Assembly (NCBI GenBank): GCA_036253495.1
Contig: GCA_036253495.1_4125.1
From: a phage
Length of the DNA stretch: 64,000 nt
Reading direction: 5' to 3' (one strand)
This document shows positions 1 through 64,000 of the stretch, in pieces; within the stretch, counting starts at the first letter, position 1; every line of letters begins with the position of its first letter. Both the position numbers and the translations under genes were made by a program. Below the pieces are notes generated by a model. That model worked only from the letters and a program-made list of their open reading frames with translations. It made no database searches and was not told where the DNA came from.

Positions 1-110
1 ACCATATAAGGGTAACAGTTATGCACATGAATCCGTTCATAGTAGTAATTGCAATCATTATGGCAGTACAGGCCGTATTAGTTTACTTAAGCAAAGCAGG
101 AGTTATCTAA
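1..110 (+). CDS. 3' end of small hydrophobic protein (open to window edge; possible own start ATG 21)
   Basis: frame open from nt 3; tail NPFIVVIAIIMAVQAVLVYLSKAGVI is one TM-like helix; TAA 108-110. Confidence 0.35.
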   Translation, partial: HIRVTVMHMNPFIVVIAIIMAVQAVLVYLSKAGVI

Positions 111-111
111 A

Positions 112-285
112 ATGATCCATGTAGAATTATCAGTACTGAAAGATTTGTTTTATCGGATGGGTACTACTGGCGAATATCCGAAGGGTGATACCGCAAAACT
201 TTTTGTATCACTCGACTTATGGCAACGCGAACAATTAGTAACGTCCTGGCGTAAAGGTAAAGCCGACAAGGGGGCCGTAGCATGA
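112..285 (+). CDS. hypothetical small protein, 57 aa
   Basis: ATG 112 right after previous stop; stop overlaps next start (ATGA 282-285); below track cutoff; antisense track ORF 150..332 judged spurious. Confidence 0.45.
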   Translation: MIHVELSVLKDLFYRMGTTGEYPKGDTAKLFVSLDLWQREQLVTSWRKGKADKGAVA

Positions 286-431
286 AAGAATACATTTTCG
301 AAGTTACGTTTTTGGGTAAAGGTATGCATCAACTGATACGGTCCAGCGGATACAGTGTTAACCAGGCGTGGAATAACTTAAAACAAATGTACCCGAACGC
401 TATCACATATCGCAACCCTCGCGAGGCATAA
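282..431 (+). CDS. hypothetical small protein, 49 aa
   Basis: ATGA-coupled to upstream ORF; MKEYIFEVTFLGKG...; TAA 429-431 followed by hairpin 447-468. Confidence 0.45.
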   Translation: MKEYIFEVTFLGKGMHQLIRSSGYSVNQAWNNLKQMYPNAITYRNPREA

Positions 432-440
432 AATAAATTG

Positions 441-616
441 AAAAAAGGGATTGACTCCGGTCAGTCCCTTTGCTATTATATACGCATAGAAACAAATTAG
501 CCCACCGGGTGCATAAATGTATCTATTGTTTGCTGGTGGAGGTATTATCTAGTACTGAAAACTATTTTTAAAAAGTACTTGCATTGTACTTAGAATCAAG
601 TATAATGTTTTACATC
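441..616 (+). repeat. intergenic regulatory module, copy 1 of 3 (others 3745-3916, 6822-7001)
   Basis: A-run + GGGATTGACTCCGGTCAGTCCCTTTGCTATTATATA, conserved CCCA..GGGTGCATA.GTGTATCTA box, then a second promoter; blocks near-identical in all copies. Confidence 0.8.
447..479 (+). terminator. hairpin terminator with embedded promoter
   Basis: stem GGGATTGAC/GTCAGTCCC then TTT; TTGACT 451-456 lies in the stem-loop, N17, TATTAT 474-479. Confidence 0.55.
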
Positions 617-645
617 AGGACGGGGAATGAAACAAGTAACCCCGT
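579..645 (+). promoter_or_regulatory. early-type promoter + G-rich leader hairpin (no ORF directly downstream)
   Basis: TTGCAT 579-584, N16, TATAAT 601-606; hairpin ACGGGG/CCCCGT 620-645. Confidence 0.55.
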
Positions 646-694
646 TAAGTAGTCCAGGAGTAAGACATAAGAAAACCTCCCCTGATAAAATAGT

Positions 695-722
695 TTGACA
701 ATAGAAAGTAAACGAGTATAAT
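695..722 (+). promoter_or_regulatory. sigma70-like promoter
   Basis: TTGACA 695-700, N16, TATAAT 717-722. Confidence 0.7.
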
Positions 723-754
723 ACTTACATCAACCACTGATAAGGAAACATAAA

Positions 755-1030
755 ATGCGGATTCTACTGACAGCTAACGAAATCGAGCAAGTACTGACTA
801 CTAACCTGGAACAATGGAAACGTGATGCAGATATCCAGGCGGTACAATGGCTTAACGATAAGTTAACGCCAGATGACTTAAGCAAGATTGTTGACCCTCA
901 ATTCTATGAAGATATTCACGACACGGCTTTAAGCGTCGAGGATGTACTTGATAAGCACTACATTGATATTGATTTGCAGGTTTACGGTCGTAAAAACTTT
1001 ATCACTATTCACGACATTTACAATACTTAA
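755..1030 (+). CDS. hypothetical protein, 91 aa
   Basis: track ORF; SD AAGGAA upstream; own promoter 695-722. Confidence 0.7.
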   Translation: MRILLTANEIEQVLTTNLEQWKRDADIQAVQWLNDKLTPDDLSKIVDPQFYEDIHDTALSVEDVLDKHYIDIDLQVYGRKNFITIHDIYNT

Positions 1031-1033
1031 GTA

Positions 1034-1092
1034 TTGACAAAGTATCTTAGTACTGTATAATAGTTTACATCAAGAGGGGAATGGTTCCCCTC
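1034..1092 (+). promoter_or_regulatory. early promoter + leader hairpin
   Basis: TTGACA 1034-1039, N16, TATAAT 1056-1061 (AGTACT abuts -10); hairpin GAGGGGAA/TTCCCCTC 1074-1092. Confidence 0.75.
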
Positions 1093-1115
1093 CTAACAAA
1101 GAGAGAGAAATAAAA

Positions 1116-1298
1116 ATGGCTAAGTGCACTATCTGTAAGAAAGAAATCGTATTAGTTCCAAGTGCCCGTGAACGTGCCGCTCGGTTCGGTGGCAAAGCGT
1201 CAGACTATACAAAAATGTTTACTGCCCATGCAGATTGCCAGGTAGCAAAACGTTCACAAGAAAGCGTAGAATTAATGCGTAAACTTTCCAAAAAATAA
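1116..1298 (+). CDS. small Cys-containing protein, 60 aa (CxxC...HxxC, possible zinc ribbon)
   Basis: track ORF; CTICKK and HADC motifs; A-rich SD GAGAGAGAAATAAAA. Confidence 0.6.
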   Translation: MAKCTICKKEIVLVPSARERAARFGGKASDYTKMFTAHADCQVAKRSQESVELMRKLSKK

Positions 1299-1301
1299 GT
1301 A

Positions 1302-1362
1302 TTGACAAAGTATCTTAGTACTGTATAATAGTTTACATCAAGTGAGGGGAATGGTTCCCCTC
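1302..1362 (+). promoter_or_regulatory. early promoter + leader hairpin
   Basis: TTGACA 1302-1307, N16, TATAAT 1324-1329; hairpin 1344-1362; near-identical to 1034-1092. Confidence 0.75.
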
Positions 1363-1385
1363 CTAACTAAAAGAGAGAAATAAAA

Positions 1386-1709
1386 ATGGCTATGATCCTC
1401 ACCCAGAAAGTAGAACTGAAAATTGTAACATCCTTTGACATTAAAGTTAATCGGTGGACTGATTCACACGGCAATACTTACCACTCTTGCTACGTGTCTG
1501 CGTTAATTGGCGACCGCTGGGAGGATTTAGGACATGAAACCTTTACTTACGGTTACGGCACACAAGGCGAATACACGGGCTTGGAGATCATTAAAGAAAC
1601 GGTTATAGGTTTCAACCCGAAAGAAAAAGTTATTCATCAAATAGAAAAAGAGATCAACAAAGAAATAACAGTTCGCTACAACGATGTAAAACGTAAGAAA
1701 GACATGTAA
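1386..1709 (+). CDS. hypothetical protein, 107 aa
   Basis: track ORF with same leader/SD as 1116 gene. Confidence 0.7.
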   Translation: MAMILTQKVELKIVTSFDIKVNRWTDSHGNTYHSCYVSALIGDRWEDLGHETFTYGYGTQGEYTGLEIIKETVIGFNPKEKVIHQIEKEINKEITVRYNDVKRKKDM

Positions 1710-1731
1710 TAGAATCCATTTAAAGTACTAT

Positions 1732-1760
1732 TTGACATTGCCCAGATAGTACTTTATAAT
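1732..1760 (+). promoter_or_regulatory. sigma70-like promoter
   Basis: TTGACA 1732-1737, N17, TATAAT 1755-1760. Confidence 0.7.
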
Positions 1761-1804
1761 AGACTCTAGCTTGTAGTACTAACTTAACTAATAGGATGTA
1801 TACC

Positions 1805-2200
1805 ATGATTACTAAATTCTACGCTACCCGTGAAGCTGCCCGTATTGTTGCACGCGAGGAAGGAGCAGCATTTAAAGACATGGGCACGACCGCACCGAAA
1901 GGCCAACGCTGGGCCGTACAGTTCAAAGAAATCTCTGATATTGTGAATTCACCTGAACCAGTACTAACAGCAGCAGAACAGAAGAAAGCTGATGAACTGT
2001 CAGCAGTACTTAACGCTCAAGATGAATTTATCGCGGGTTCTGATATCAAAGTACAGGTAAATGCTAATGCATGGACTCACGCGGATCACCTGGCTAACCT
2101 GAAGCGTCCAAGTGAACTGGTTCGCAACCAGAAAGAGATCCGACACGACCGTAAGGGTAATCGTGTAACAGTATACAGTAAACGCCGCCAGGTTATCTAA
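1805..2200 (+). CDS. hypothetical protein, 131 aa
   Basis: track ORF 1796..2200; ATG 1805 preferred because AGGA 1793-1796 sits 8 nt upstream. Confidence 0.65.
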   Translation: MITKFYATREAARIVAREEGAAFKDMGTTAPKGQRWAVQFKEISDIVNSPEPVLTAAEQKKADELSAVLNAQDEFIAGSDIKVQVNANAWTHADHLANLKRPSELVRNQKEIRHDRKGNRVTVYSKRRQVI

Positions 2201-2222
2201 TAACTTGCAGTACTAACAACAC

Positions 2223-2247
2223 GGCGGGATCAGTTCCCGCCTTTTTT
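2223..2247 (+). terminator. rho-independent terminator
   Basis: GGCGGGA/TCCCGCC stem followed by T6. Confidence 0.8.
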
Positions 2248-2262
2248 ATAGGATAAACTAAA

Positions 2263-2517
2263 ATGATTAAGGTACAACTATCTAAAGATAATATCTTGCG
2301 GGTACACTATAAAGCCCCTCAGAGAATCATCACAAAGGCCGTACAGCTTGCTAATGAGTTTATTAATGGTAATCTATTGCCCAGGAAGTTAAGCAACGGC
2401 AAACTGCGTGTAATCGATGTAGACACTAACAACAGGATAGTAATCGAGAATACCGGAAAGATAAACCTCTATGAACACCAACAATATAATAAGAAAATAA
2501 AACTAATATCACGTTGA
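2263..2517 (+). CDS. hypothetical protein, 84 aa
   Basis: track ORF; SD AGGA; stop TGA lies inside next promoter -35. Confidence 0.65.
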   Translation: MIKVQLSKDNILRVHYKAPQRIITKAVQLANEFINGNLLPRKLSNGKLRVIDVDTNNRIVIENTGKINLYEHQQYNKKIKLISR

Positions 2518-2542
2518 CAGTACTCAATTGTTTTAGTACTAT
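2514..2542 (+). promoter_or_regulatory. sigma70-like promoter
   Basis: TTGACA 2514-2519, N17, TACTAT 2537-2542; two AGTACT in spacer region. Confidence 0.65.
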
Positions 2543-2570
2543 GTATCTATACCAACACGGGAGAAACAAA

Positions 2571-2789
2571 ATGAAATTATCTAAAATCGAAAAGAAAACT
2601 ATTGATGAAGCAGTTAAGCACGGTTATACCTTTCGTAATGATTCACATTTTACCAATTTTCAACAAGGGTATCGTACTATTAAAAAACTAATTGACAAAG
2701 GTTTATTAGTTAAAGTAGATAACGGTAACGGCGTGGAGTATCAGCCAACACAAGACGCATTATCTTTAAAGAAATATGCAATTATCTAA
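2571..2789 (+). CDS. hypothetical protein, 72 aa (possible winged-helix, weak)
   Basis: start re-set from 2514 (track ORF runs through promoter); SD GGGAGA; IKKLIDKGLLV segment. Confidence 0.55.
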   Translation: MKLSKIEKKTIDEAVKHGYTFRNDSHFTNFQQGYRTIKKLIDKGLLVKVDNGNGVEYQPTQDALSLKKYAII

Positions 2790-2818
2790 TTGACAGTACT
2801 CAAATGTTTTAGTACTAT
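2790..2818 (+). promoter_or_regulatory. sigma70-like promoter (duplicate of 2514 cassette)
   Basis: TTGACA 2790-2795, N17, TACTAT 2813-2818. Confidence 0.65.
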
Positions 2819-2854
2819 ATGTACATACCAACACGGAATAACTGGAGAAACAAA

Positions 2855-3082
2855 ATGATTAATATCTTAGAACGCATCAAAGAAACTACTACGCTGGTGG
2901 ATCTACTCAATGTACTGACTTTTAAAGTAACTCGGTTTAGTACTCCTGAATTTATCAACCTCATTGATAGTAAAGGTGAATACCGCATCACTATTGAAAA
3001 TGGTCGTGCTAATGTATTCAGTACTAAATCAGGTAAAACCGCAATTCATTCTGTAATTGCAAATAAAACTGTTGCAATCTAA
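2855..3082 (+). CDS. hypothetical protein, 75 aa
   Basis: start re-set from 2819; SD GGAGAAACAAA as in 2571 gene. Confidence 0.6.
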   Translation: MINILERIKETTTLVDLLNVLTFKVTRFSTPEFINLIDSKGEYRITIENGRANVFSTKSGKTAIHSVIANKTVAI

Positions 3083-3130
3083 TTAGTACTAACATATAAT
3101 AGTCACATCAAGGCAGGGAATACCTCCCTG
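3072..3130 (+). promoter_or_regulatory. early promoter + leader hairpin
   Basis: TTGCAA 3072-3077, N17, TATAAT 3095-3100; hairpin CAGGGA/TCCCTG 3114-3130. Confidence 0.65.
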
Positions 3131-3151
3131 CTATCTTAAAGAGTAAATGCA

Positions 3152-3736
3152 ATGCGTAATTATACTAAATTCATCCGGGCACTGGCAGAAATGGAAACTA
3201 ACAAAGAGATCCTTACAGCTTGTCGGTTGGCTGGTCTGGAGATCATCGGGGCCGGATCATCCCGTATCGTATTCGCTTTAAATGATCGGTTAGTGATTAA
3301 GGTCGCTAATTGTGACGCTGGCGTAGAACAAAATGAAACAGAATGTAAGGTATGGAATTTTTTAGATTATGACCGCCCTCACCTTAAACAGTACTTTGCT
3401 AAGGTGCATATGCATTTAAGCGATCCTGATAATATGTTTATTGTTATGGATCGTTTGAGTACTGCAAGCAAAGGCAGTGTAAAGCACGTTAACGCTTGCA
3501 ATGAATTAAAGTACAATGTCAAACGTAACACTATTGAACGCCAACACCATTTCGCTGATGCACTACAACACGTTGATGATACCTTATCAACACTAACGAT
3601 AAGAGATATCAGAAAGCAGAACATAGGCCAAGATCGCAATGGCCTGATTAAAGTACTTGATTACGGTTTAACCCGCAATATCTGGAATCAGTACTATAAA
3701 CAACGCGACGTAAAAGCCGTAACTATAACACGATAA
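3152..3736 (+). CDS. small protein-kinase-like protein, 194 aa
   Basis: GAGSSRIVF (Gly loop), VIKVA (Lys), RDIRKQN (catalytic D..N spacing as in HRDxKxxN), LDYG (DFG-like). Confidence 0.6.
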   Translation: MRNYTKFIRALAEMETNKEILTACRLAGLEIIGAGSSRIVFALNDRLVIKVANCDAGVEQNETECKVWNFLDYDRPHLKQYFAKVHMHLSDPDNMFIVMDRLSTASKGSVKHVNACNELKYNVKRNTIERQHHFADALQHVDDTLSTLTIRDIRKQNIGQDRNGLIKVLDYGLTRNIWNQYYKQRDVKAVTITR

Positions 3737-3744
3737 AAAAGATT

Positions 3745-3916
3745 AAAAAAGGGATTGACTCCAGTCAGTCCCTTTGCTATTATATAGTCATTGAGAGATA
3801 ACTCACTGACCCATAGGGTGCATAAGTGTATCTATAATATAAGTATTGTCAGTACTGAAAACTATTTTAAAAAAGTACTTGCATTGTACTTAGAATCAAG
3901 TATAATGTTTTATATC
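3745..3916 (+). repeat. intergenic regulatory module, copy 2 of 3
   Basis: same hairpin/promoter block and second TTGCAT promoter as 441-616. Confidence 0.8.
3751..3783 (+). terminator. hairpin terminator with embedded promoter
   Basis: GGGATTGAC...GTCAGTCCC + TTT; TTGACT 3755-3760, N17, TATTAT 3778-3783. Confidence 0.55.
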
Positions 3917-3939
3917 GAGAGGGGGAAACGGTTCTCCCT
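3879..3939 (+). promoter_or_regulatory. early promoter + leader hairpin
   Basis: TTGCAT 3879-3884, N16, TATAAT 3901-3906; hairpin 3920-3939. Confidence 0.7.
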
Positions 3940-3958
3940 GGCAATAAGGAATAAAATC

Positions 3959-4180
3959 ATGACTACAATGACTTGCATTTACGCTTCCAATCTTCTGAAT
4001 GATGCGGCCTTTAATGTTGATTCAGAATATCAATGTTATCGGGATGAAAATAAAAAAGTTTTTGTAGTTGATAATAATGGTTTCCATATTGAATTGCAAT
4101 CCGGCTTCACTGGCGTTGATGGTAAATCAGTATGGGGCGTACAGGATGATAAAGGTACATATCATTTTAAACGTAATTAA
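3959..4180 (+). CDS. hypothetical protein, 73 aa
   Basis: start re-set from 3791 (track ORF reads through promoter and hairpin); SD AAGGAATAAAATC. Confidence 0.65.
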   Translation: MTTMTCIYASNLLNDAAFNVDSEYQCYRDENKKVFVVDNNGFHIELQSGFTGVDGKSVWGVQDDKGTYHFKRN

Positions 4181-4183
4181 GTA

Positions 4184-4242
4184 TTGACAAAGTATCTTAG
4201 TACTGTATAATAGTTTACATCAAGGGGAGAATAGTTCTCCCC
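4184..4242 (+). promoter_or_regulatory. early promoter + leader hairpin
   Basis: TTGACA 4184-4189, N16, TATAAT 4206-4211; hairpin GGGGAGAA/TTCTCCCC 4224-4242. Confidence 0.75.
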
Positions 4243-4263
4243 GATACTAAAAGGAATAAAATC

Positions 4264-4671
4264 ATGACTACTACTAATCAAGCTCGGTCCATCGCCAACG
4301 ATAAAAATCATGCTGCAATGGTCGCTGGTTACATTGAAGCTATGCAATTCAGTACTGTACACAATGAGAACGGCGAATACCTGGAAGATTATGAATTATC
4401 AGAGCAAGCCCATCAAGCGGCAGTGATTGCATGTTCACGTTTCCTTGCTGTACATGGTGAAGATATGGAAACAGTACAAAAACACCATAATCCTGATTAT
4501 ACTTATAATCATGCAGGTCATGATCTCTTTCTTACTCGCGAAGGTCACGGTACTGGCTTTTGGGATCGTGATATCGGTCACTATGACGATGTATTCACTA
4601 AGTACTGCGAAGAAATCAACGTTTGCGATCCCTATGTAGGCGATGATAATCTAATCTATATGGGCGAATAA
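4264..4671 (+). CDS. hypothetical protein, 135 aa
   Basis: track ORF; SD AAGGAA; His/Gly-rich segment GHDLFLTREGHGTGFWDR; no family named. Confidence 0.75.
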   Translation: MTTTNQARSIANDKNHAAMVAGYIEAMQFSTVHNENGEYLEDYELSEQAHQAAVIACSRFLAVHGEDMETVQKHHNPDYTYNHAGHDLFLTREGHGTGFWDRDIGHYDDVFTKYCEEINVCDPYVGDDNLIYMGE

Positions 4672-4677
4672 AAGTAC

Positions 4678-4736
4678 TTGACAAAGTATATCAGTACTGT
4701 ATAATAGTTTACATCAAGGGGAGAATAGTTCTCCCC
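4678..4736 (+). promoter_or_regulatory. early promoter + leader hairpin
   Basis: TTGACA 4678-4683, N16, TATAAT 4700-4705; hairpin 4718-4736. Confidence 0.75.
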
Positions 4737-4758
4737 ACCAATAAAAGGAAACAACATT

Positions 4759-5031
4759 ATGTCAAGCTACTCCGCTACTATGATCATTAAAGATATGAAC
4801 GGTAATCCTACTTCTGCTGGTGGATCATTTGGAAACATTAACTTAGATGGTCGGTTATCAATGGAATCAGCCATCAATGCAGCGAAAGAAGTTTTTAAGA
4901 ATGAATGTACTGTAAGCAAGCTAGATTATATGGGCTTCGCTATCGAGAAAACTAAACGTTTTGTGGACTACAAAAATCCACTAATGATTGATACTAACCT
5001 GAAAGCTAACGAAGTGGAATACTTATTATGA
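4759..5031 (+). CDS. hypothetical protein, 90 aa
   Basis: track ORF; SD AAGGAA. Confidence 0.7.
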   Translation: MSSYSATMIIKDMNGNPTSAGGSFGNINLDGRLSMESAINAAKEVFKNECTVSKLDYMGFAIEKTKRFVDYKNPLMIDTNLKANEVEYLL

Positions 5032-5219
5032 CAGTTGAAGAAGTTAAAAAAGTACTGGCAGTACTACGCTATCATAATCATTGCAAGGTGAAGAATGATC
5101 CTGATTATGTTGATTCATCCCTGGAGGAAGACACCTTAAACGCGATAAGCCATATGCAAACATTAGCAAAGCGTATGACCGAAAAGAATAGGCCGGACTA
5201 TATCGGAAATAAAATTTAA
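5028..5219 (+). CDS. hypothetical protein, 63 aa
   Basis: ATGA overlap with upstream stop. Confidence 0.6.
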   Translation: MTVEEVKKVLAVLRYHNHCKVKNDPDYVDSSLEEDTLNAISHMQTLAKRMTEKNRPDYIGNKI

Positions 5220-5226
5220 AAAGTAC

Positions 5227-5288
5227 TTGCATTGTAGTTAGATTAAAGTATAATGTTTTATATCGAGAGGGGGAAATGGTTTCCCCTC
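5227..5288 (+). promoter_or_regulatory. early promoter + leader hairpin
   Basis: TTGCAT 5227-5232, N16, TATAAT 5249-5254; hairpin 5267-5288. Confidence 0.7.
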
Positions 5289-5306
5289 AAGTCCAGGAGA
5301 TACACC

Positions 5307-5570
5307 ATGAACACTATCGAAATCACTATTAATGCTCACGTATACGACAACGTAGTACTGCAAACTACTATGACCGCTAACGATACCAGTACTTTGCGGA
5401 ATACTGTTATAAGTGCTGTATGTGCCGCTATCGGTGATGTATCCCTGGAAAATGCAGAACACATCAACAACGGTTTCACTATGTGCAAACGTGATAACGC
5501 AAAACATATCATCGTAGAAGGTTACGGCGGTGTAGAATATAACCTTTATATGAAAAAAGTACTTGCATAG
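5307..5570 (+). CDS. hypothetical protein, 87 aa
   Basis: start re-set from 5253; SD CAGGAGA. Confidence 0.65.
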   Translation: MNTIEITINAHVYDNVVLQTTMTANDTSTLRNTVISAVCAAIGDVSLENAEHINNGFTMCKRDNAKHIIVEGYGGVEYNLYMKKVLA

Positions 5571-5619
5571 TAACTAAAACAAAGTATAATGTTTTGCATA
5601 GGGGGAGATATCCTCCCCC
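5563..5619 (+). promoter_or_regulatory. early promoter + leader hairpin
   Basis: TTGCAT 5563-5568, N16, TATAAT 5585-5590; hairpin GGGGGAG/CTCCCCC 5601-5619. Confidence 0.7.
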
Positions 5620-5638
5620 ACTAATAAGGAGTACTACG

Positions 5639-5863
5639 ATGGCTAATCATGATGAACTGATTCGGGAAGTAGCTAACCTGGCGGCAGAAAAGAAATCATT
5701 TGATTCTATCTATAACACCGCTCACCGTGATTCAGTACTGGCATGTAATCAGGATCAAAAAGATGAACTGATCGCAACCTATCATGAAGCATGGAAGTAT
5801 TACCGTCAATGGGAGAAAGAAGAAAAAGCATCAACCATAAGAGGATTAAATAATCTAGTATAA
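5639..5863 (+). CDS. hypothetical protein, 74 aa
   Basis: start re-set from 5594; SD AAGGAG. Confidence 0.65.
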   Translation: MANHDELIREVANLAAEKKSFDSIYNTAHRDSVLACNQDQKDELIATYHEAWKYYRQWEKEEKASTIRGLNNLV

Positions 5864-5915
5864 CAATAAAAGGGGATGATAATATCCCCTTAATAATTTC
5901 TATAATAGGTTAACA

Positions 5916-6182
5916 ATGAAAAAGAAAACAACATATCGCTATAATAAAAATTATCAATCCGTTGTATTAGATCACTCTATGCTCCCGCTCGTTGTCCCTG
6001 CCGTTGGTGTAGTCTATCAATCCATATACTGGTCAAGGAAACAACAAAAGTACTTAAAAGGCCCACTAGCACGTTATGAGGGTAACGGTGTATGGTCCGA
6101 TCCGTTACATCCAATCACTACGCGTTATATTGAATATTTTCCTTATTGTGACTACATTGAAATACATCCTAAATTTAATTGA
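5916..6182 (+). CDS. hypothetical protein, 88 aa (paralog of 6263..6520)
   Basis: shares LP(L/V)..P..G..Y......Y.GNG.W.DP..PI....DYIE pattern with next gene. Confidence 0.65.
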   Translation: MKKKTTYRYNKNYQSVVLDHSMLPLVVPAVGVVYQSIYWSRKQQKYLKGPLARYEGNGVWSDPLHPITTRYIEYFPYCDYIEIHPKFN

Positions 6183-6187
6183 TAGTA

Positions 6188-6241
6188 TTGACAGTACTAA
6201 CTGATAGTGTATAATGTTTTGCATAGGGGGAATACTCCCCC
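6188..6241 (+). promoter_or_regulatory. early promoter + leader hairpin
   Basis: TTGACA 6188-6193, N16, TATAAT 6210-6215; hairpin GGGGG/CCCCC 6226-6241. Confidence 0.7.
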
Positions 6242-6262
6242 AATATTAAAAGGGGAATCATC

Positions 6263-6520
6263 ATGGAACAATTCACACAATATCGGGTAAATCCTCAAGC
6301 TATGGCCTACGTAGAAGACCATAAAACGTTACCAGTACTGCAACCAGTTAAAGGCCGTATCTATCGTGGCCTTGCATGGAATACGGCCCAGGATGGATAT
6401 AAAACCGTTGCCGTGGGGATGTATTGCGGGAATGGTGAATGGTTTGATCCTAACAATCCGATTGCACTTGACAGTACTGAAAAAATGAAATGGGCCGACT
6501 ATATCGAGGATATCTCATAA
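6263..6520 (+). CDS. hypothetical protein, 85 aa (paralog of 5916..6182)
   Basis: track ORF; SD AAAGGGGAA. Confidence 0.7.
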   Translation: MEQFTQYRVNPQAMAYVEDHKTLPVLQPVKGRIYRGLAWNTAQDGYKTVAVGMYCGNGEWFDPNNPIALDSTEKMKWADYIEDIS

Positions 6521-6526
6521 AACTAT

Positions 6527-57851: not shown

Positions 57852-57860
57852 TTATTACAA

Positions 57861-57884
57861 AGGGATCAGTACTGATCCCTTTTC
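57861..57884 (+). terminator. rho-independent terminator (perfect 20-bp palindrome with AGTACT centre)
   Basis: AGGGATCAGT/ACTGATCCCT followed by TTTTCTTTT. Confidence 0.8.
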
Positions 57885-57903
57885 TTTTAATTTAGGTGAT
57901 ATA

Positions 57904-58164
57904 ATGGATAATAGTTATGATGTACATTTCAAACAATGCCAGTTGGTTTTACACTCCCTAATGGAAGAGTTGCGAATCAAGTACATAGGCAAAATTGCTA
58001 CATGTTTATCAACTGGAAGACGTGGGCAAATTGTAGAGATTTATTATTCTCCACTTAGTGATGAAATTAAAATAAAAGCTAAAATATTCCTAACTGGATC
58101 TAACAATTTCTTGGGTGAACATATGGTAAAAATTATCTCTGAATTATCGATAACGGATGAATAA
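57904..58164 (+). CDS. family C paralog C14, 86 aa
   Basis: KYIGKIATCLSTGRRGQIVEIY; SD AGGTGAT. Confidence 0.7.
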   Translation: MDNSYDVHFKQCQLVLHSLMEELRIKYIGKIATCLSTGRRGQIVEIYYSPLSDEIKIKAKIFLTGSNNFLGEHMVKIISELSITDE

Positions 58165-58166
58165 AC

Positions 58167-58433
58167 ATGGATATTAATAAAGATTTTAGATTTATCAATT
58201 CGCATATACAAGTACTGAAAACATTAGTAAAACAAGTATCAGAAAAATACACAGGAACTTATGTTAGATGTGCTTTTGATGCAAATGACTGGCAACGAAT
58301 TATAAAAATAGATTCAGTTTATCTTGATACAAATAATAGTATTACAGTTTCAGGTATTGATATGTATGGTCATCGATATCAATTTACTACAAGAGCCACA
58401 ATAACTACAGTGGATGGATATGAATACGAATGA
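58167..58433 (+). CDS. family C paralog C15, 88 aa
   Basis: KYTGTYVRCAFDANDWQRIIKIDSV. Confidence 0.65.
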   Translation: MDINKDFRFINSHIQVLKTLVKQVSEKYTGTYVRCAFDANDWQRIIKIDSVYLDTNNSITVSGIDMYGHRYQFTTRATITTVDGYEYE

Positions 58434-58719
58434 ATTCCAAGCATTATTGAAAACATTATATCTTCTTAAAGAAGAATCTCTTGCAATGTATAATGAAAAA
58501 CAATACAAGTTTGAAGAACAACTCATTCATTTTCATGATGAATATCTTGACTTTTTGAATAAAAAATACTCAAATGTTCAGTGCAAATATCGAGGTAGTG
58601 ATGTTATTATTACCGAAATCGAATCCAGTACTTACGGATATCCATACCTTTGTTGCAAATATATCCCAAGTAATATAACATTTCGCTCAAGAATGTATTC
58701 GAGGTTTATTTTTTCATGA
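58414..58719 (+). CDS. family C paralog C16, 101 aa
   Basis: KYSNVQCKYRGSDVIITEIESS. Confidence 0.6.
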   Translation: MDMNTNEFQALLKTLYLLKEESLAMYNEKQYKFEEQLIHFHDEYLDFLNKKYSNVQCKYRGSDVIITEIESSTYGYPYLCCKYIPSNITFRSRMYSRFIFS

Positions 58720-58997
58720 ATAATGATTCATTGAAGTTTTTTTATTATCATTATCGTATTTTACGTAGTTTATATTTTTCAGAATCCGATGAAAGATTAC
58801 TAACATCATTATCAGTACTGATGGATAATTACGAGAACGAATTATCAAAAGTGGTTTTTGGTGTCAATGTTCTAGATGATACCGATTTAACATGGACAAT
58901 TATTGAAGTGGCGACCTGGAATGGTAATATTTTGTACAGGTGCGAACGAGCAGGTTTTTTATGGGATGCAACATATGACGAGATTAGAATTGTATGA
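58716..58997 (+). CDS. family C paralog C17, 93 aa
   Basis: VVFGVNVLDDTDLTWTIIEV; ATGA overlap. Confidence 0.6.
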   Translation: MNNDSLKFFYYHYRILRSLYFSESDERLLTSLSVLMDNYENELSKVVFGVNVLDDTDLTWTIIEVATWNGNILYRCERAGFLWDATYDEIRIV

Positions 58998-59274
58998 CAG
59001 GCAAGTGAAATTGATAAGAGATACTCGTCGTTTCTTTCATACTCAATTAGTAGACCCATGTTATGATATTTCCGATTTCCTTGAAACCTATCTCCTTGAT
59101 CTAACTACACCACTGCTTAAAAAATACGTAGGAACAAAAGCTATATATCTTGGAAGAGAAGTTGAAATTACCAACATATCATATTCTTATGGGGCATACA
59201 TGTATACGGCAAAATCTGATAATGGACAAAGATATTATGCAATACGATCAAGAGAACTTACTATTATTGGATAG
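58975..59274 (+). CDS. family C paralog C18, 99 aa
   Basis: start re-set from 58903; KYVGTKAIYLGREVEITNISY. Confidence 0.6.
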   Translation: MTRLELYDRQVKLIRDTRRFFHTQLVDPCYDISDFLETYLLDLTTPLLKKYVGTKAIYLGREVEITNISYSYGAYMYTAKSDNGQRYYAIRSRELTIIG

Positions 59275-59566
59275 GCATCTTGCTATTCTTATCGACCTTG
59301 TGATGGAAAGTGATGTAAAAATTTTTGAAAGTAGATTTCTTGAGGATTATAAAACTGAATTGCAAGAACTGTACAAAGGTAAAAAAGTATTACTTAGTAC
59401 TGGTGACTATGGTAAAATTGAGTACGTGTATTATGAATGGAAAAAGGTTATATATTTTATAAAAACCAAAATAAAATACCAAAATAAAACAAGAACCTAT
59501 AAAGCATATTACGATTCAAATGAGATAGAGATTATATATGACCAACACGTTAATAACAAAAAGTGA
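59237..59566 (+). CDS. family C paralog C19 (start uncertain)
   Basis: LYKGKKVLLSTGDYGKIEYVYY; ATG 59237 or TTG 59266 (track 59150). Confidence 0.55.
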   Translation: MQYDQENLLLLDRHLAILIDLVMESDVKIFESRFLEDYKTELQELYKGKKVLLSTGDYGKIEYVYYEWKKVIYFIKTKIKYQNKTRTYKAYYDSNEIEIIYDQHVNNKK

Positions 59567-59861
59567 ATTAGATTATTTGAATTATATAAACAGATACTTT
59601 CTGATTCTATATAATATACTTCTTGAAGAACAATGCACTAAATCAAACCATCAGTTATATAACTATATTAACTGTATAATTAGTGAAATATATGAATCAT
59701 TGGAAAAGAGATTTAAGTACAGAACTATTAAGTGCGAAGATGATATTGTATATATTCATGGTGTTTTTGGTACAGGATATGGAATATTCGTTGATTATAA
59801 AATACACCCATTTGATCCGTACATAGAAAATAGTATGTACATAGAAGAGATTGAACTATGA
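59538..59861 (+). CDS. family C paralog C20, 107 aa
   Basis: RTIKCEDDIVYIHGVFGTGYGIFVDY. Confidence 0.6.
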   Translation: MTNTLITKSELDYLNYINRYFLILYNILLEEQCTKSNHQLYNYINCIISEIYESLEKRFKYRTIKCEDDIVYIHGVFGTGYGIFVDYKIHPFDPYIENSMYIEEIEL

Positions 59862-60175
59862 CACAAGAAGAATATAATAAATTAATAATGTACGAGAATC
59901 ATTTTAATTATTGTCTGAAATGGTTATTGTACATTGATAACGTTGAGATGGATATGTACAGAAAAGAGGTGAATAAACGTGTTAAAGATTTCTATTACGA
60001 ATTGACTGATCTTTTTTATAATAATGTAGTATATGAAGCAAATACCAGTCGTGATTATGACCTTTATATCAAGCAAATATGGGGTACTGACTACGGTCTG
60101 ATGATTGATTGCAGTACTGATGTTAATACAGACAGACCCAGTACTACATTGTATCTGGATGAGATTTTCATATGA
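59858..60175 (+). CDS. family C paralog C21, 105 aa
   Basis: DLYIKQIWGTDYGLMIDC (cf. C20); ATGA overlap. Confidence 0.6.
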   Translation: MTQEEYNKLIMYENHFNYCLKWLLYIDNVEMDMYRKEVNKRVKDFYYELTDLFYNNVVYEANTSRDYDLYIKQIWGTDYGLMIDCSTDVNTDRPSTTLYLDEIFI

Positions 60176-60474
60176 ATGAACTATTACTTTGTCATAAAAC
60201 ATACATTATGCTATTCAGAACGTGCCATGATATGCGAATTGAGGGGATACTAGACTACCCAACTATGATGATTAACTTCAGGGTGTTAATGGATTCATAT
60301 TCACAATCTGTTATTGATGCATTTGAAGGTAGAGAAATAAAGTTCAAAAATGCCAGGACAAATAATGAGCTATGTGATACAATTAAATCAGTGGGGATTT
60401 CGGTTCCAAATGTGTACGTAATCCCATTGATGTACGGAAAAGTAGTATCCACTAACGAAATTATTAGTATATGA
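60172..60474 (+). CDS. family C-like paralog C22, 100 aa
   Basis: FEGREIKFKNARTNN; ATGA overlap. Confidence 0.55.
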   Translation: MNELLLCHKTYIMLFRTCHDMRIEGILDYPTMMINFRVLMDSYSQSVIDAFEGREIKFKNARTNNELCDTIKSVGISVPNVYVIPLMYGKVVSTNEIISI

Positions 60475-60770
60475 TTAAAACATTATATGAAGCAGAAGAA
60501 ACATATAAACTTCTGTGGGAAACTTTTATTTTTGACAAATACTATAATAGAACTGAATGGTTAGAGGTAAGTAAAATATATCTTCAAATTTTAAATGATT
60601 ATTTTTGTCCGTTCGTTGCTGAATGTAAAAATAATCCAATTGAAGAAATTAATATAATCGAAATAGTAGATGGGTTTGGTGCGTGGTTGATATACCAAGA
60701 CAACTATCACTTTTCTAATTATATCGAAGATATCGGTAAAATAATTGTAATTAAAGGAGTCATACTATGA
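60471..60770 (+). CDS. family C-like paralog C23, 99 aa
   Basis: size, position, helical N-half; ATGA overlap. Confidence 0.55.
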   Translation: MIKTLYEAEETYKLLWETFIFDKYYNRTEWLEVSKIYLQILNDYFCPFVAECKNNPIEEINIIEIVDGFGAWLIYQDNYHFSNYIEDIGKIIVIKGVIL

Positions 60771-61384
60771 TTTATGCACTATACGTACTATACGTACTTG
60801 GTCTGGTTATTGGTTGGTTTTTGGCAAAATCTTACAACCGTAATGCACTGGCATACACAGTATTTGGTATTATTTTTACGCCAGTACTAGAACTAGGTTT
60901 ACTAATTATTATGGGTCGCCGTGACATGACACCAGTCATTGACGATAATCGTGATAAAGCAGTACATGATGTACCAGTTTTTGAAGGATATACGCCAACT
61001 TTAACTGTTGATGACGTTTACATTGATGGTGCTGCTGAAGAAGTTAAATCAGTTCAGGAAGAAGTTGAAGAAGTTCCAGTAAAAGAAGAACCACAACCAA
61101 AAGCATCAACAACTAAAACAAAAGCAAAAACTTCTAAGAAAACAAAAGGTCGCAAGACTAGCACTAAAAATACCAAAAAAACCAGTACAACTCGCAAAAG
61201 CACTAAAACTGATAAGGAAGCATCTTCCAGTACTACCAGTACTGATGATGGTACAAGCACTGTTCTACTGACAGCAGCAACAACTGCCGCAATTATCAGT
61301 ACTTCATCCTATAGCGACTCATCTTCCTCTTATGACAGTGGCTCTTGTGATAGTTCAAGCTCAAGTTCAGGAAGCTGTGATTAA
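60767..61384 (+). CDS. membrane protein with Lys/Thr-rich and Ser-rich low-complexity tail, 205 aa
   Basis: two N-terminal TM helices; KASTTKTKAKTSKKTKGRKTSTKNTKKTSTTRKSTK; C-terminus SSSYDSGSCDSSSSSSGSCD. Confidence 0.65.
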   Translation: MIYALYVLYVLGLVIGWFLAKSYNRNALAYTVFGIIFTPVLELGLLIIMGRRDMTPVIDDNRDKAVHDVPVFEGYTPTLTVDDVYIDGAAEEVKSVQEEVEEVPVKEEPQPKASTTKTKAKTSKKTKGRKTSTKNTKKTSTTRKSTKTDKEASSSTTSTDDGTSTVLLTAATTAAIISTSSYSDSSSSYDSGSCDSSSSSSGSCD

Positions 61385-61728
61385 TGGTTCCGTTATCATC
61401 TGAACTAAGGTACTTCGAATCTCTCCTTGATCTTCAATCAGAATTCGTTAGTACCTTAAAAAATAAATTAATAGGCAAAAAAGTAAAATTCACTCAAGAG
61501 TATATTGACCACATCAATAAGGCTAAGGAGGATGAAGTAGATTCTGACTGGATTTATTGTGATGATGAAGCTTCTCATATCAACGAAAATACAGTTATGT
61601 TTATTACTTTGTTGCGAGTAAAGAATTCATCAATCTATGTTGATGTTGAATATGAAAATCCAAAAAGTTCTGAATGGTACGGATTCACTTACCGTTTAGA
61701 TCGTTTAGAACTAATAGAAGAGGAATAA
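61384..61728 (+). CDS. family C paralog C24, 114 aa
   Basis: NKLIGKKVKFTQEY (cf. C13 SLIGKKVECW). Confidence 0.6.
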   Translation: MVPLSSELRYFESLLDLQSEFVSTLKNKLIGKKVKFTQEYIDHINKAKEDEVDSDWIYCDDEASHINENTVMFITLLRVKNSSIYVDVEYENPKSSEWYGFTYRLDRLELIEEE

Positions 61729-61971
61729 ATGATTTTATTTTTTGCTTTGTATGGTGTAGGAGTACTGAGTACATTTATCAGTACTTTTCTTATCATCAAT
61801 TGGGGTTCTTTTAAAGATACCCCTACCACAATGATTAATATTAGTACCTGCTCTATGTTATCAGTACTGTGGCCTGTGTCGTTGGTGTATCTTTTCATTT
61901 CAATCTGTAAAGATTTTTACGATACACTAACAAAATTCAAGAAGAAGAAACATGACAAAGACGGAAATTGA
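61729..61971 (+). CDS. small membrane protein, 80 aa
   Basis: ILFFALYGVGVLSTFISTFLII and CSMLSVLWPVSLVYLFISI helices; basic tail. Confidence 0.6.
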   Translation: MILFFALYGVGVLSTFISTFLIINWGSFKDTPTTMINISTCSMLSVLWPVSLVYLFISICKDFYDTLTKFKKKKHDKDGN

Positions 61972-62206
61972 ACAGTTAAAGATGTTACAATCGTTATCTG
62001 ATGATTTTGTCCAACGTGCTAAGCACAAATATATTGGTCAAGAAATTCTTCTTAAACACTCCAGAGGTTGGCAAAAAATATGCATAAGAGATATGGGAAC
62101 ATATTATGGTGATGTGCGATATTACGTAGATTGCTATGTTAATGACCAAATTGCCAATACTCAAGTTGTCACCTATGATAAAATTATATGGATTAAAGAA
62201 CAATGA
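61952..62206 (+). CDS. family C paralog C25, 84 aa
   Basis: KYIGQEILLKHSRGWQKICIRDM. Confidence 0.65.
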   Translation: MTKTEIEQLKMLQSLSDDFVQRAKHKYIGQEILLKHSRGWQKICIRDMGTYYGDVRYYVDCYVNDQIANTQVVTYDKIIWIKEQ

Positions 62207-62946
62207 AACATTTCTTAGAAGTAACAGTTCCTGATGAAAAAGATTTGTATATAGTAGGAGACATTCACGGTAATGCAAAACTATGGGAACATACCAAGAA
62301 AGAATTTGGTATTACTCCTGAAGATTATGTATTCAGTTTAGGCGATTTAATTGACAGAGGTGAGCAAAGTGCTCACCTTTTGTTTGAGTTTTTATTCGCT
62401 GAGAATCGATATATGATCATGGGCAATCATGAATCGATGTGTATTGATTCTGCAACTCATCGTGACTGGTATCATTGCTGGACACAGAATGGGGGCGATA
62501 AGTTCCTGGAAGAAGTTGGTGTATCAGGAGTGGAATTCTTCCGTCAGTACTTGAACCAGCTACCTATGATTATCCAAATCAATCACAGAGGACTCAAGAT
62601 TGGCCTCGTACATGCAAGTGTAGACCTTAAGCACACTGACTGGAATAAGTTCATTACTGGGACAAAATCAATGTCCAGTGATACAATTGAGTCATGCCTA
62701 TGGGACAGAAAGACATTTGATTTCTGTAAAGCTAACAACGTCTTTAATGCACCACGTATTGCTAACGTCGATTACGTTCTTAGTGGTCATACCGCTGTGT
62801 TTGATCCCCTAATTTATGGAAACCGTATCTGGATTGACAGTCAGTTCCTTACTGGTGATTTGACTATTGCTACCCCACAAGGTGGTAAGATGCGTTATTT
62901 GCGTAAAGAAAAAGACGAATATTCATTCAGTCGATTCAAAAGGTAA
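62203..62946 (+). CDS. Ser/Thr protein phosphatase (lambda-phosphatase / calcineurin-like metallophosphoesterase)
   Basis: GDIHGN, GDLIDRG, GNHE, later GH motifs in canonical order; ATGA overlap. Confidence 0.85.
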   Translation: MKHFLEVTVPDEKDLYIVGDIHGNAKLWEHTKKEFGITPEDYVFSLGDLIDRGEQSAHLLFEFLFAENRYMIMGNHESMCIDSATHRDWYHCWTQNGGDKFLEEVGVSGVEFFRQYLNQLPMIIQINHRGLKIGLVHASVDLKHTDWNKFITGTKSMSSDTIESCLWDRKTFDFCKANNVFNAPRIANVDYVLSGHTAVFDPLIYGNRIWIDSQFLTGDLTIATPQGGKMRYLRKEKDEYSFSRFKR

Positions 62947-62951
62947 TTATT

Positions 62952-63230
62952 ATGCATGACATGATTGATAGTGCATTAACCGAATTTAACTTTTTTAAAA
63001 AATCACTCGATACAATAATCAATGATACCAACCAACAAATGAAAGACCATTTAAGTGATAAATTGGTTGGTCGTTGGGTTGAGCTACCATATATAGATGG
63101 AACTACTGTTGGTGTGATTCATAGAATTGTAACAATTCATGAAGTGAAGGTGTATGTTGAAATTTTGGTTGACAATGAAACTAACAAATGTTTTGTACAA
63201 TTAAGCACTGAAGATTTAACTTTTTTATAA
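62952..63230 (+). CDS. family C paralog C26, 92 aa
   Basis: KLVGRWVELPYIDGTTVGVIHRIV. Confidence 0.6.
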   Translation: MHDMIDSALTEFNFFKKSLDTIINDTNQQMKDHLSDKLVGRWVELPYIDGTTVGVIHRIVTIHEVKVYVEILVDNETNKCFVQLSTEDLTFL

Positions 63231-63239
63231 GGATATAAA

Positions 63240-63467
63240 ATGAAAGTAATTTATGTTCAGGTTGAAAAATATCAAACTGAAGATGGTCGCATTTTTGATT
63301 CAGCTAAACAAGCTGAGCATCATGAACGTATTATTTCTGGTGTTCGTCGCATTTGTCCTAAATGTAACGGAACACAACAAGTTCCCGATGAAGAATTTCG
63401 TCGCTATTATGCATGTCCAGATTGTGATGGTAAAGGATATGTAGAAAAACAAGAGGTATGGAAGTGA
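63240..63467 (+). CDS. small zinc-finger protein (DnaJ-type CxxCxGxG repeats), 75 aa
   Basis: CPKCNGTQ and CPDCDGKG. Confidence 0.65.
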   Translation: MKVIYVQVEKYQTEDGRIFDSAKQAEHHERIISGVRRICPKCNGTQQVPDEEFRRYYACPDCDGKGYVEKQEVWK

Positions 63468-63877
63468 AACTATATTGCTTAACAAACATGTACTGTCAGG
63501 GTGTTCAGGCTGGCATTCAGGCATTTCATGCTGGTATTAAACTCGTCAAAGATTATGAAGGTTCAGTATTCAGTACTCTAATCGATGAATGGTATAATGA
63601 GCACGAAACTATTGTAATTCTCAATGCTGGCAACCAAGATAAATTAACCACTCATTACGAGAATCTATCCAAACAGGGCAAGGTTCCATTTGCTAAATTC
63701 AATGAACCAGGTTTGAACGATACCCTCACTAGTGTAGCAGTACTATGCACTGAAGAAATGATTGATGACATGGCACTGATGCGTACTAACGACCCAATGA
63801 CTGATTTACAGCTATGTCACAAATACGGTCATATGTACGAAACACTAAAAGCTATGAGTACAATGAGGACTATTTGA
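63458..63877 (+). CDS. hypothetical protein, 139 aa; weak PTH2 (peptidyl-tRNA hydrolase 2)-like pattern
   Basis: GVQAGIQAFHA...W....ETIVILNA...L..L...G.....F.EPGLN..LTSVAVL resembles the PTH2 layout; by eye only. Confidence 0.3.
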   Translation: MEVKLYCLTNMYCQGVQAGIQAFHAGIKLVKDYEGSVFSTLIDEWYNEHETIVILNAGNQDKLTTHYENLSKQGKVPFAKFNEPGLNDTLTSVAVLCTEEMIDDMALMRTNDPMTDLQLCHKYGHMYETLKAMSTMRTI

Positions 63878-64000
63878 TGAATTTTCCTGAAAAGATTTTC
63901 GTCGCAAGACGTTTTGTTAGTGGGGATCAGGTTGACGGATATATTATCGACGCAACTAAAATGCACACTAAAGCATTTGAAACTAAGAAAGAACGTGTTG
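63877..64000 (+). CDS. 5' end of hypothetical protein (runs off window)
   Basis: TGATG overlap; MNFPEKIFVARRFVSGDQVDGYIID... Confidence 0.5.
   Translation, partial: MNFPEKIFVARRFVSGDQVDGYIIDATKMHTKAFETKKERV

Follow-up and report, generated by a model that had tools for sequence, protein, structure and literature searches.

The 64,000-nt stretch of phage DNA analysed here (contig GCA_036253495.1_4125.1, hereafter the window) carries the palindrome AGTACT 213 times. This excess is real and large, and it marks a positively selected DNA word and not a by-product of coding. The window belongs to the genus Asteriusvirus, a group of Rak2-like jumbo coliphages with genomes of ~ 350 kb. Its closest relative was Escherichia phage A4 (~ 99% identity over 20 kb), and patchy identity of 75-90% was observed to TH47, 121Q, PBECO4, G17, Sharanji and fEgEco12, all of them members of Asteriusvirus; a search of IMG/VR returned phage 121Q as the sole match. 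Gene calling yielded 151 genes covering 91% of the window, all on the + strand, which is the gene direction throughout this genome region. In the 64 kb, no tRNA and no Rfam match was detected.

The genome of fEgEco12, whose termini were determined experimentally, was reported to be linear and bounded by 20,993-bp direct terminal repeats (DTRs). Alignment to fEgEco12 position 20,993 placed the end of the left DTR at approximately position 8,305 of the window, which therefore starts within the terminal repeat and extends to early/middle genes. The right-hand part of the DTR (1..8305, + strand) contains small early genes, sigma70-type promoters and 52 copies of AGTACT (6.3/kb); the placement of small early genes in the terminal-repeat block is probable by analogy with other terminally redundant phages. 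The boundary itself, with ...GGGCGGGTAATTGC on its left and TTAGC... on its right, is followed directly by a sigma70-like promoter (TTGACT-N17-TATTAT) and then by an array of tiny genes. The left part of the array (8306..11977, + strand) contained no AGTACT, whereas its right part (11978..13799, + strand) reached 7.7/kb. The next segment (13798..20267, + strand), referred to below as the ACT-free zone, again contained none. The remaining early/middle region (20268..64000, + strand) held 147 copies (3.4/kb), evenly spread along the genes. A preliminary description of this DNA had put the density at 2-6 copies per kb through most of the window. This does not hold throughout, as we found no copy at all in 8,174-11,977 and 13,800-20,587. 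The counts made there by hand, 19 copies to nt 3100 and 52 to nt 8200, were exact.

The first of these two gaps lies in the tiny-gene array (8,359-13,533), which is composed of ~ 20 tandem, overlapping, paralogous genes of 66-96 aa; 20 of the 23 array proteins fall into one family. The left copies lack AGTACT and the right copies share sites at offsets of 22, 101, ~ 123 and ~ 190 nt, and the amplification of motif-less and motif-bearing units therefore explains both the gap and the dense patch next to it. An identical gap was present in fEgEco12 and 121Q. We rejected the idea that it represents a second special zone, since the array is paralogous, GTAC occurs there at the level of chance and ACT is normal.

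Within the DTR, the word is found inside promoters. In an example early promoter (1034..1061, + strand), arranged as TTGACA-N9-AGTACT-g-TATAAT, it abuts the -10 box, and the same design recurs near 1302, 4184 and 4675, giving four copies in total. The corresponding CTTAGTACTGTATAAT starts at 1046, 1314 and 4196, in agreement with the earlier observation of the word in promoter spacers. The overlap of AGTACT with the -35 box was also confirmed at 2514, 2790 and 13514, where it takes the form TTGACAGTACT, and further copies at 6188, 6468 and 6527 bring the number to six. A terminator-like hairpin, GGGATC-AGTACT-GATCCC followed by a T run (57861..57880, + strand), bears the word in its loop, at 57868, as had been described; it was the only terminator copy.

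Over-representation and conservation of AGTACT

Shuffled sequences with preserved dinucleotide composition contained AGTACT 18.3 ± 3.9 times (maximum 28), against the 213 copies observed, which bears out the massive over-representation originally claimed. The word was the commonest 6-mer of the window, above every A/T-rich word. Markov models of orders 0, 1, 2 and 3 predicted 21, 18, 41 and 89 copies, respectively; only with order 4 did the prediction come near the count (184), owing to a six-fold enrichment of the constituent 5-mers AGTAC and GTACT. CAGTACTG was present 55 times in the window, with 0.8 copies expected. The base at -1 was C in 108 of the 213 sites (51%), with A preferred otherwise, and the base at +6 was G in 103 (48%), with T also preferred. 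G at -1 and C at +6 were both depleted to 8%, meaning that the flank preferences are symmetric.

In coding sequence, we observed 181 copies, compared to 54.4 ± 6.7 after shuffling synonymous codons within genes and 24.2 ± 4.3 after codon permutation. The enrichment over the phase-specific null was 8.1-fold for AGT-ACT, 9.3-fold for xxA-GTA-CTx and 4.0-fold for xAG-TAC-Txx; the independence from codon phase proposed earlier, together with its three examples at 1960, 2939 and 7321, was thus confirmed. The excess distorts protein composition. Ser-Thr dipeptides numbered 147 against 75 expected (Thr-Ser, 59), with 87 of them encoded as AGT-ACT against 20 expected, and Val-Leu dipeptides numbered 171 against 106. 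Along genes, the placement of the word was uniform, and its density was higher in non-coding (5.8/kb) than in coding (3.1/kb) DNA.

A compositional by-product, whether it stems from codon or dipeptide preference, from other palindromes being avoided or from biased repair or mutation, is a practically negligible explanation for these counts. AGT, ACT, GTA and TAC are all favoured codons, and this speaks for such an origin, as does the proximity of the order-4 Markov expectation to the count. Nevertheless, the coding count exceeded the codon-aware nulls 3.3-7.5 times, with an excess in all phases, and codon, dipeptide and Markov explanations were rejected on that basis. The preliminary description had named beforehand what would overturn its claim, either a count within about two-fold of the codon-shuffled expectation or an enrichment due to a single dipeptide; the values found agreed with neither. 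The higher density in non-coding DNA, the high conservation of individual sites, the undepleted one-mismatch neighbours and phage PA5oct, which has a similar G+C content and no excess, argue against a by-product as well.

Across the whole TH47 genome, the gaps between successive AGTACT copies were near-exponential, with no 10.5-bp (helical) or longer period. A phased or periodic protein-binding array was ruled out by this Poisson-like spacing. With respect to transcription, the half-sites were balanced between the strands outside the ACT-free zone (280 versus 283).

Conservation of the sites was assessed on 28.8 kb of the window that could be aligned to TH47 at 82% identity. AGTACT was intact in 82 of 108 sites (76%), compared to a mean of 42% for all hexamers and 36-49% for other common hexamers (z = 7.2). 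The one-mismatch neighbours of the word were mildly enriched, mostly with observed/expected ratios (O/E) of 1.1-2.4, and 16 of the 18 were above 1. A drive by repair or gene conversion of the very-short-patch type was ruled out, as near-cognate words are not depleted.

The excess extends well beyond the window. AGTACT was the top hexamer also in the 350-kb genome of TH47, with 909 copies against 103 expected. Its density there was 2-3/kb everywhere, including late-gene regions on either strand, and rose to 4-8/kb in a ~ 23-kb block that is the counterpart of the terminal repeat; a similar peak in the terminal-repeat/early region was seen in RaK2 and BF. The sampled DNA contained 70 copies against 5.8 expected in 121Q (21 kb), 119 against 12 in Klebsiella phage RaK2 (50 kb), 181 against 8.7 in Cronobacter phage GAP32 (30 kb), 174 against 9.6 in Serratia phage BF (30 kb), and 147 against 9.1 in XbC2, a Mimasvirus isolated on Xanthomonas (30 kb). 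The excess was therefore found in at least four genera with little mutual nucleotide identity. In 18-kb samples, Pseudomonas phage PA5oct had 0 copies (~ 3 expected), Xanthomonas phage XacN1 had 0 (~ 2 expected) and Agrobacterium phage Atu_ph07 had 1 (2.1 expected). The presence of the excess in Rak2-like genera and its absence from these three samples mean that the word tracks the phage clade. AGTACT is thus a shared, maintained signature of the sampled Rak2-like jumbo phages (Asterius-, Alcyoneus-, Mimas- and Eneladusvirus). XbC2, although isolated on Xanthomonas, shows the excess; since it belongs to Mimasvirus and bears Chi sites of the E. coli type, however, it provides only a suggestive test of whether the reader of the word comes from phage or host. 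A 50-kb sample of E. coli K-12 contained 3 copies of AGTACT (0.06/kb, ~ 1 per 17 kb), and the phage DNA, at 2.6-6.3/kb, is 40-100 times denser. The motif was not reported in the literature that we searched (AGTACT with phage, Asteriusvirus, RaK2, GAP32, CBB and ScaI/RsaI; the GAP32 genome paper lay outside this coverage).

The contrast with the palindrome avoidance usual in phages, drawn in the preliminary description, proved sharper than claimed. About 25 six-base palindromes were represented by zero copies in the window, among them GGATCC, CTGCAG, GAGCTC, GTCGAC, CCATGG, GCATGC, GGTACC and CGTACG. GCGC was likewise missing both from the window (34 expected) and from TH47 (200 expected), whereas GATC (0.53-fold) and CTAG were under-represented at 0.5-0.8 of expectation. 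Against this background, the O/E of AGTACT was 11.7 and that of the next-highest palindrome 1.65. The phage clearly practises restriction-site avoidance, to which AGTACT is the single exception: it belongs to the same class of words in the same genome, but with a 10-fold enrichment it is opposite in sign. Taken together, the codon-aware nulls, the distorted dipeptides, the conservation of sites and the spread over genera support the original proposal that selection acts on the DNA word itself.

The ACT-free zone

In the second gap, as a search for strand-asymmetric words revealed, the triplet ACT is missing from the + (coding) strand, and with it all words that contain it. Between 13,798 and 20,267 we observed 0 copies in 6,471 nt, with ~ 135 expected (log10 P ~ -50). 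Other words were present, AGT 156 times, ACA 184, ACG 65 and ACC 46 times, and TACG was common. All 14 genes called in the zone (13803-19897) lack ACT, whereas every other gene of the window has it, and ACT is otherwise abundant, at 21/kb. Threonine codons make up 3.9% of the total in the zone and 6.0% outside. The zone starts with the first gene of the cluster and ends ~ 370 nt beyond the last. No Pfam match and no sequence match in the PDB was found for the zone proteins, and their PHROGs were of unknown function only.

The zone is kept at the same position in four Asteriusvirus genomes: apart from the window, stretches without ACT span 6,981 nt in A4 (31,575-38,554), 7,511 nt in 121Q (161,804-169,313) and 6,976 nt in TH47 (73,242-80,216, in the opposite orientation). 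The genes inside turn over, with some confined to single lineages and others sharing no more than 39-46% identity from one lineage to another. The next best trinucleotide-free run anywhere in the 350 kb of TH47 reached a log10 P of only -6. No such zone was found in BF (1-70 kb), GAP32 (1-30 kb) or RaK2 (1-50 kb and 232-280 kb).

Besides lacking AGTACT and TGTACT, the zone contains 46 copies of AGTACA (~ 16-fold enriched), on the + strand only and in all phases; none of its 75 GTAC tetramers is followed by T. In TH47 and 121Q, the AGTACA pattern extends over parts that are not homologous to the window. A ban on ACT forbids AGTACT and every NGTACT, so that AGTACA is the nearest allowed variant and its apparent orientation is a by-product. 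We therefore withdrew an orientation-sensitive reader of AGTACT, which this AGTACA-only segment had seemed to imply, as the ban alone explains the asymmetry. The 16-fold enrichment of AGTACA means, in turn, that the pressure for the word persists in the zone and that a match in five of six positions is still of value to the reader.

The triplet is gone from the sense strand only, in all frames and over whole genes, which is the pattern expected of transcripts immune to an RNA interferase, and it suggests that the zone transcripts are immune to an ACU-specific RNase. Precedents for triplet-free immune transcripts are the ACA-less mRNAs with MazF and the GCU-less mRNAs with MqsR, where a triplet is likewise wholly absent from the sense strand in all frames. 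Unlike these single short genes, the zone comprises 14 genes over 6.5-7.5 kb, and its rule persists despite gene turnover. We know of no enzyme specific for ACU. ChpBK cuts ACY. MazF has been reported to cut ACA, and MazF-SEA and PemK to cut U^ACG and U^ACU. As ACA, ACG and TACG are common in the zone, none of these toxins fits as the ACU reader. With one triplet banned absolutely from a block of several genes, the zone amounts to a natural experiment of unusual clarity, from which an ACU-specific activity would be expected in infected enterobacteria.

A candidate nuclease, predicted from its sequence, is encoded in the DTR (2263..2514, + strand). This 84-aa protein of the RelE/ParE superfamily matched the Pfam family PF24732 (ParE_like) with 42.6 bits (cutoff 24.4). 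It is 93-100% identical across Asteriusvirus and has homologues with 33-67% identity in RaK2/K64-1, GAP32, BF, CBB and Yersinia phages; others occur in Erwinia phages and XbC2, and the genes lie in the early or repeat block. One RaK2/K64-1 record annotates the homologue as "YafQ-like ribonuclease toxin". The model of the protein had a pLDDT of 90, and its nearest folds were YoeB, YafQ, RelK, ParE2 and HigB, all of them weak matches (TM 0.33-0.51, E ≥ 0.08). No obvious antitoxin was recognised beside the gene, and homologues of the protein occur in genera whose sampled DNA showed no ACT-free zone. The protein might be the ACU endoribonuclease behind the zone, which we offer as a hypothesis only.

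It is a further step to propose that AGUACU is itself an RNA-level signal tied to this early RelE/YafQ-fold protein; being palindromic, it would appear in the RNA whichever strand is transcribed, and mRNA turnover would depend on its cleavage or binding. We consider this quite unlikely. A RelE/ParE-fold protein is found, in the early or repeat block, in every genus with a measured AGTACT excess. The ban on sense-strand ACU in one operon shows that some RNA- or strand-level reader of ACU exists. The phage also carries RNA-repair enzymes, namely a T4-type RNA ligase 1 (Rnl1, 54700-55845) and a polynucleotide kinase/phosphatase (PNKP, 56919-57851), both recognised by Pfam; the pair indicates that RNA-cleaving host defences matter for the phage. 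However, palindromes make up only 1.6% of hexamers, so that an RNA word would hardly be palindromic by chance, and copies of AGTACT lie within promoter spacers, ahead of the start sites. The balance of sense and antisense half-sites makes genome-wide selection at the level of mRNA unlikely. Moreover, AGTACA is dense in the very operon that bans ACU, so the requirement for AGTAC can be separated from ACU. The fold match is weak and the RNase role is predicted, and weaker RelE/ParE homologues occur in Xanthomonas phages, of which XbC2 alone had its AGTACT content measured.

Possible readers of the word

The preliminary description assigned no function to AGTACT from sequence, and that caution still holds. 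The palindromy of the word, its symmetric flanks, the strand balance, the Poisson-like spacing, the restriction to one clade and the peak at early promoters are together best fitted by a symmetric protein that reads duplex DNA. We tentatively favour, as a serious possibility, a phage-encoded protein with two-fold symmetry that would recognise duplex AGTACT, act through the density of its sites, mark phage DNA and probably occlude early promoters. Such a protein, encoded by the phage clade, could bind the word sequence-specifically or belong to a modifying enzyme as its recognition module. Its action would depend on density, about one site per 150-400 bp, and not on exact placement, and this density would tag phage DNA against the AGTACT-poor DNA of the host. 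With sites lying over the -35 box or abutting the -10 box of sigma70 promoters, the reader could also switch early transcription off, and AGTACA in the ACT-banned operon may still serve the same reader.

The biology reported for these phages provides some context. The DNA of fEgEco12 was cut as predicted by 10 restriction enzymes, none of which overlaps GTAC, and a global hypermodification of bases is therefore excluded. These phages form no phage nucleus, and cells infected with Sharanji filament as phage DNA fills the cell. If a dense word does mark phage DNA, it would help to explain how jumbo phages without a nucleus or modified DNA distinguish themselves from the host or time their early genes.

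We must also note several points that weigh against a symmetric duplex-reading protein. A Pfam search of 150 window ORFs gave 13 families, without a recognisable sequence-specific DNA binder among them. The families include PNKP with kinase/AAA-type domains, T4-type RNA ligase 1, a Dam-family methyltransferase, a methyl-accepting chemotaxis protein (MCP) signalling domain, a metallophosphatase, a zinc-ribbon protein and the ParE-like toxin domain, with weak matches to PTH2 and Zeta-toxin. Continuous coverage is not essential, as the 3.7 kb directly after the terminal repeat are free of sites. The degradation of host DNA by these phages has only been speculated, so that the benefit of a dense marker is hypothetical, and our data agree with binding as well as with modification. 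Finally, one operon bans ACT, and AGTACT is made up of two ACT triplets placed back to back; this coincidence hints at a different, strand-reading logic.

Following this hint, AGTACT and the ACT-free operon might form one word-based identity system with a common reader of ACT/ACU, possibly the near-invariant early RelE/YafQ-fold protein or the phage primase-helicase. The palindrome would then be a high-affinity self-mark spread through the genome, and the hypervariable early operon without ACT would stay expressed, or its strand untouched, while the reader is active. We regard such a system as improbable; if it were true, a jumbo phage with unmodified DNA would have encoded in its sequence what other phages achieve by modified bases or a nucleus.

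Alternatively, AGTACT could be the target of a phage DNA methyltransferase or another base-modifying enzyme, as an epigenetic self-mark, a timing switch or a protection of the ScaI/Eco255I type. This is rather unlikely, although several observations favour it. The word is a classic type II palindrome within the 4-8 bp range of such sites, and ~ 900 unprotected copies would be costly to a genome otherwise purged of palindromes. The only DNA-modifying enzyme recognisable in the window is a Dam-family N6-adenine DNA methyltransferase of 175 aa (46952..47479, + strand; PF05869, E = 4e-32; A4_406). Enzymes of PF05869 are mostly GATC-specific, and we could assign no methyltransferase to AGTACT or GTAC. 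Two to three methyltransferases are present in Sharanji, BF and CBB, and the DNA of RaK2 was reported to be methylated (data not shown in that source). Protection alone, however, predicts that sites are tolerated and not that they are enriched 10-fold at a cost in amino acids. The searched literature gave neither ScaI/RsaI digests of these phages nor methylomes.

The word could also be read strand by strand by a tracking enzyme. One candidate is a phage primase recognising the triplet 5'-ACT-3' with a cryptic T and making the primer pppGUACU; the other is a helicase-nuclease responding to a Chi-like signal. In either case, a palindrome would need only six constrained bases to equip both strands with the signal. 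Phage primases do read triplets, GTC in T7 and GTT in T4. AGTACT contains two ACT triplets on opposite strands; the zone strips ACT from one of them, and the bottom-strand GTACT is still ~ 16-fold enriched. The clade has a T4-type gp41/gp61 helicase-primase and an additional primase-helicase, and gp46/47 and helicases were reported in it. The statistics of AGTACT are Chi-like in that it is over-represented in all frames and conserved, and the terminal repeat is also where true Chi sites cluster. On the other hand, the non-palindromic half-sites are only ~ 2-fold enriched genome-wide, and ACT is abundant already. Outside the zone there is no orientation bias, nor do we see a rationale for a 6.5-kb strand that cannot be primed. 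The start of the zone at the edge of a gene cluster and its overrun of the last gene agree better with a cause at the RNA level. A tracking reader is, in our view, unlikely.

A host reader was considered as well. The binding sequence reported for the nucleoid-occlusion factor SlmA, GTGAGTACTCAC, has AGTACT as its core, and titration or activation of SlmA by phage DNA could block cell division in infection, which is in line with the filamentation of Sharanji-infected cells. The SlmA site is, like AGTACT, a palindrome with the same 6-bp core, and it is bound by a dimeric helix-turn-helix protein. SlmA requires G1, T2, A4, G5 and a purine at position 3, with A11 and C12 on the other flank; the phage sites lack the outer GT/AC and this purine, which are even under-represented there. 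None of the 909 sites of TH47 and none of the 213 in the window matched the full or the relaxed SlmA sequence GTRAGYRCTYAC. GTR and YAC flanks occurred 0 and 4 times in the window (6.7 expected each) and 17 and 10 times in TH47 (23.7 expected), and the core is preceded by C in 51% and by G in 8% of the sites. With flanks at or below the level of chance, SlmA was ruled out as the reader, and a role for it is very improbable.

AGTACT resembles other dense genomic recognition words, such as Chi and uptake sequences, and differs from them in being a palindrome that is borne by a phage amid extreme palindrome avoidance. Chi (GCTGGTGG) and other crossover-hotspot words are also short, many-fold over-represented in all frames, conserved among relatives and dependent on density, and they mark DNA as own. 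Unlike AGTACT, which is palindromic, lacks strand skew and resides in a phage, Chi is asymmetric, strand-skewed, read by RecBCD and located on the host chromosome. Applied to AGTACT, the features that define Chi gave over-representation in all frames and conservation, but no asymmetry and no skew in orientation. The Neisseria DNA uptake sequence (DUS) and the Haemophilus uptake signal sequence (USS) are similarly spread genome-wide, with roughly one copy in each kb, owe their maintenance to selection or drive, and come in lineage "dialects" that mark kin DNA. They are 9-12 nt long, non-palindromic and read by the competence machinery, whereas the phage AGTACT has no uptake step. Another likeness is phage SPO1, which has a long terminal repeat with strong early promoters and hydroxymethyluracil in its DNA; its protein TF1 prefers phage DNA and has sites at early promoters. 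Both cases would combine a promoter-rich terminal repeat with a phage protein selective for phage DNA, but the identity mark of SPO1 is a modified base and here it would be a sequence word. A TF1-like protein was not found in the window.

Chi, the uptake sequences and the FtsK-orienting KOPS are dense selected words that each led to a specific molecular machine. AGTACT similarly implies a reader, which should be retrievable directly by oligonucleotide, and it is kept across several genera of 350-kb phages in which > 80% of the genes are of unknown function. In practical terms, ScaI and RsaI sites are extremely frequent in these genomes, the clade can be diagnosed by this simple k-mer, and the engineering of these phages, which are candidates for therapy, has to follow the word as a design rule.

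Other features of the window

The E. coli Chi sequence GCTGGTGG occurs at 532, 2893, 4816, 6718 and 6941 (+ strand), all within the DTR, which amounts to 5 copies against 0.24 expected. Chi sites co-oriented with the genes were found in the terminal-repeat/early block of every genus sampled, with 8 in TH47, 7 in GAP32, 6 in BF and 7 in XbC2. The clusters spanned 88.8-105.4 kb in TH47 and, in the sequences labelled L012, L013 and L022, 9.8-23.3 kb, 6.6-18 kb and 3.3-16.4 kb, respectively. In this orientation, Chi is recognised by RecBCD moving from right to left after entry through the repeat copy at the right end. A conserved intergenic element, aaaaagggattgactccggtcagtccctttgctattatata, is present in three copies (432-500, 3737-3790 and 6811-6880). 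It contains an inverted repeat overlapping a promoter-like TTGACT...TATTATA, and a Chi site follows two of the copies.

Two further words stood out by their scarcity. TAAATA occurred 7 times in the window (70 expected) and TATTTA 6 times (58 expected), an eight- to ten-fold depletion on both strands, and TATAAATA was represented by 0 copies. This is consistent with the avoidance of spurious late promoters of the T4 type; a T4-like late promoter, ATAAATA, and a gp55 homologue have been reported in phage CBB.

The block at 8-47 kb is mostly without counterpart in Serratia phage BF. It includes a long back-to-back run of similar-sized genes (20,600-42,700, ~ 150-210 aa each) without Pfam matches, which possibly constitute a further paralogous family. 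A segment of 690 nt (45,700-46,391) contains no ORF of ≥ 45 aa on the gene strand and no tRNA or Rfam match, and it bears two AGTACT copies. At 32387-33799, we also observed a gene for a 470-aa protein with the MCP signalling domain (PF00015, E = 7e-37), an unusual feature for a phage protein.

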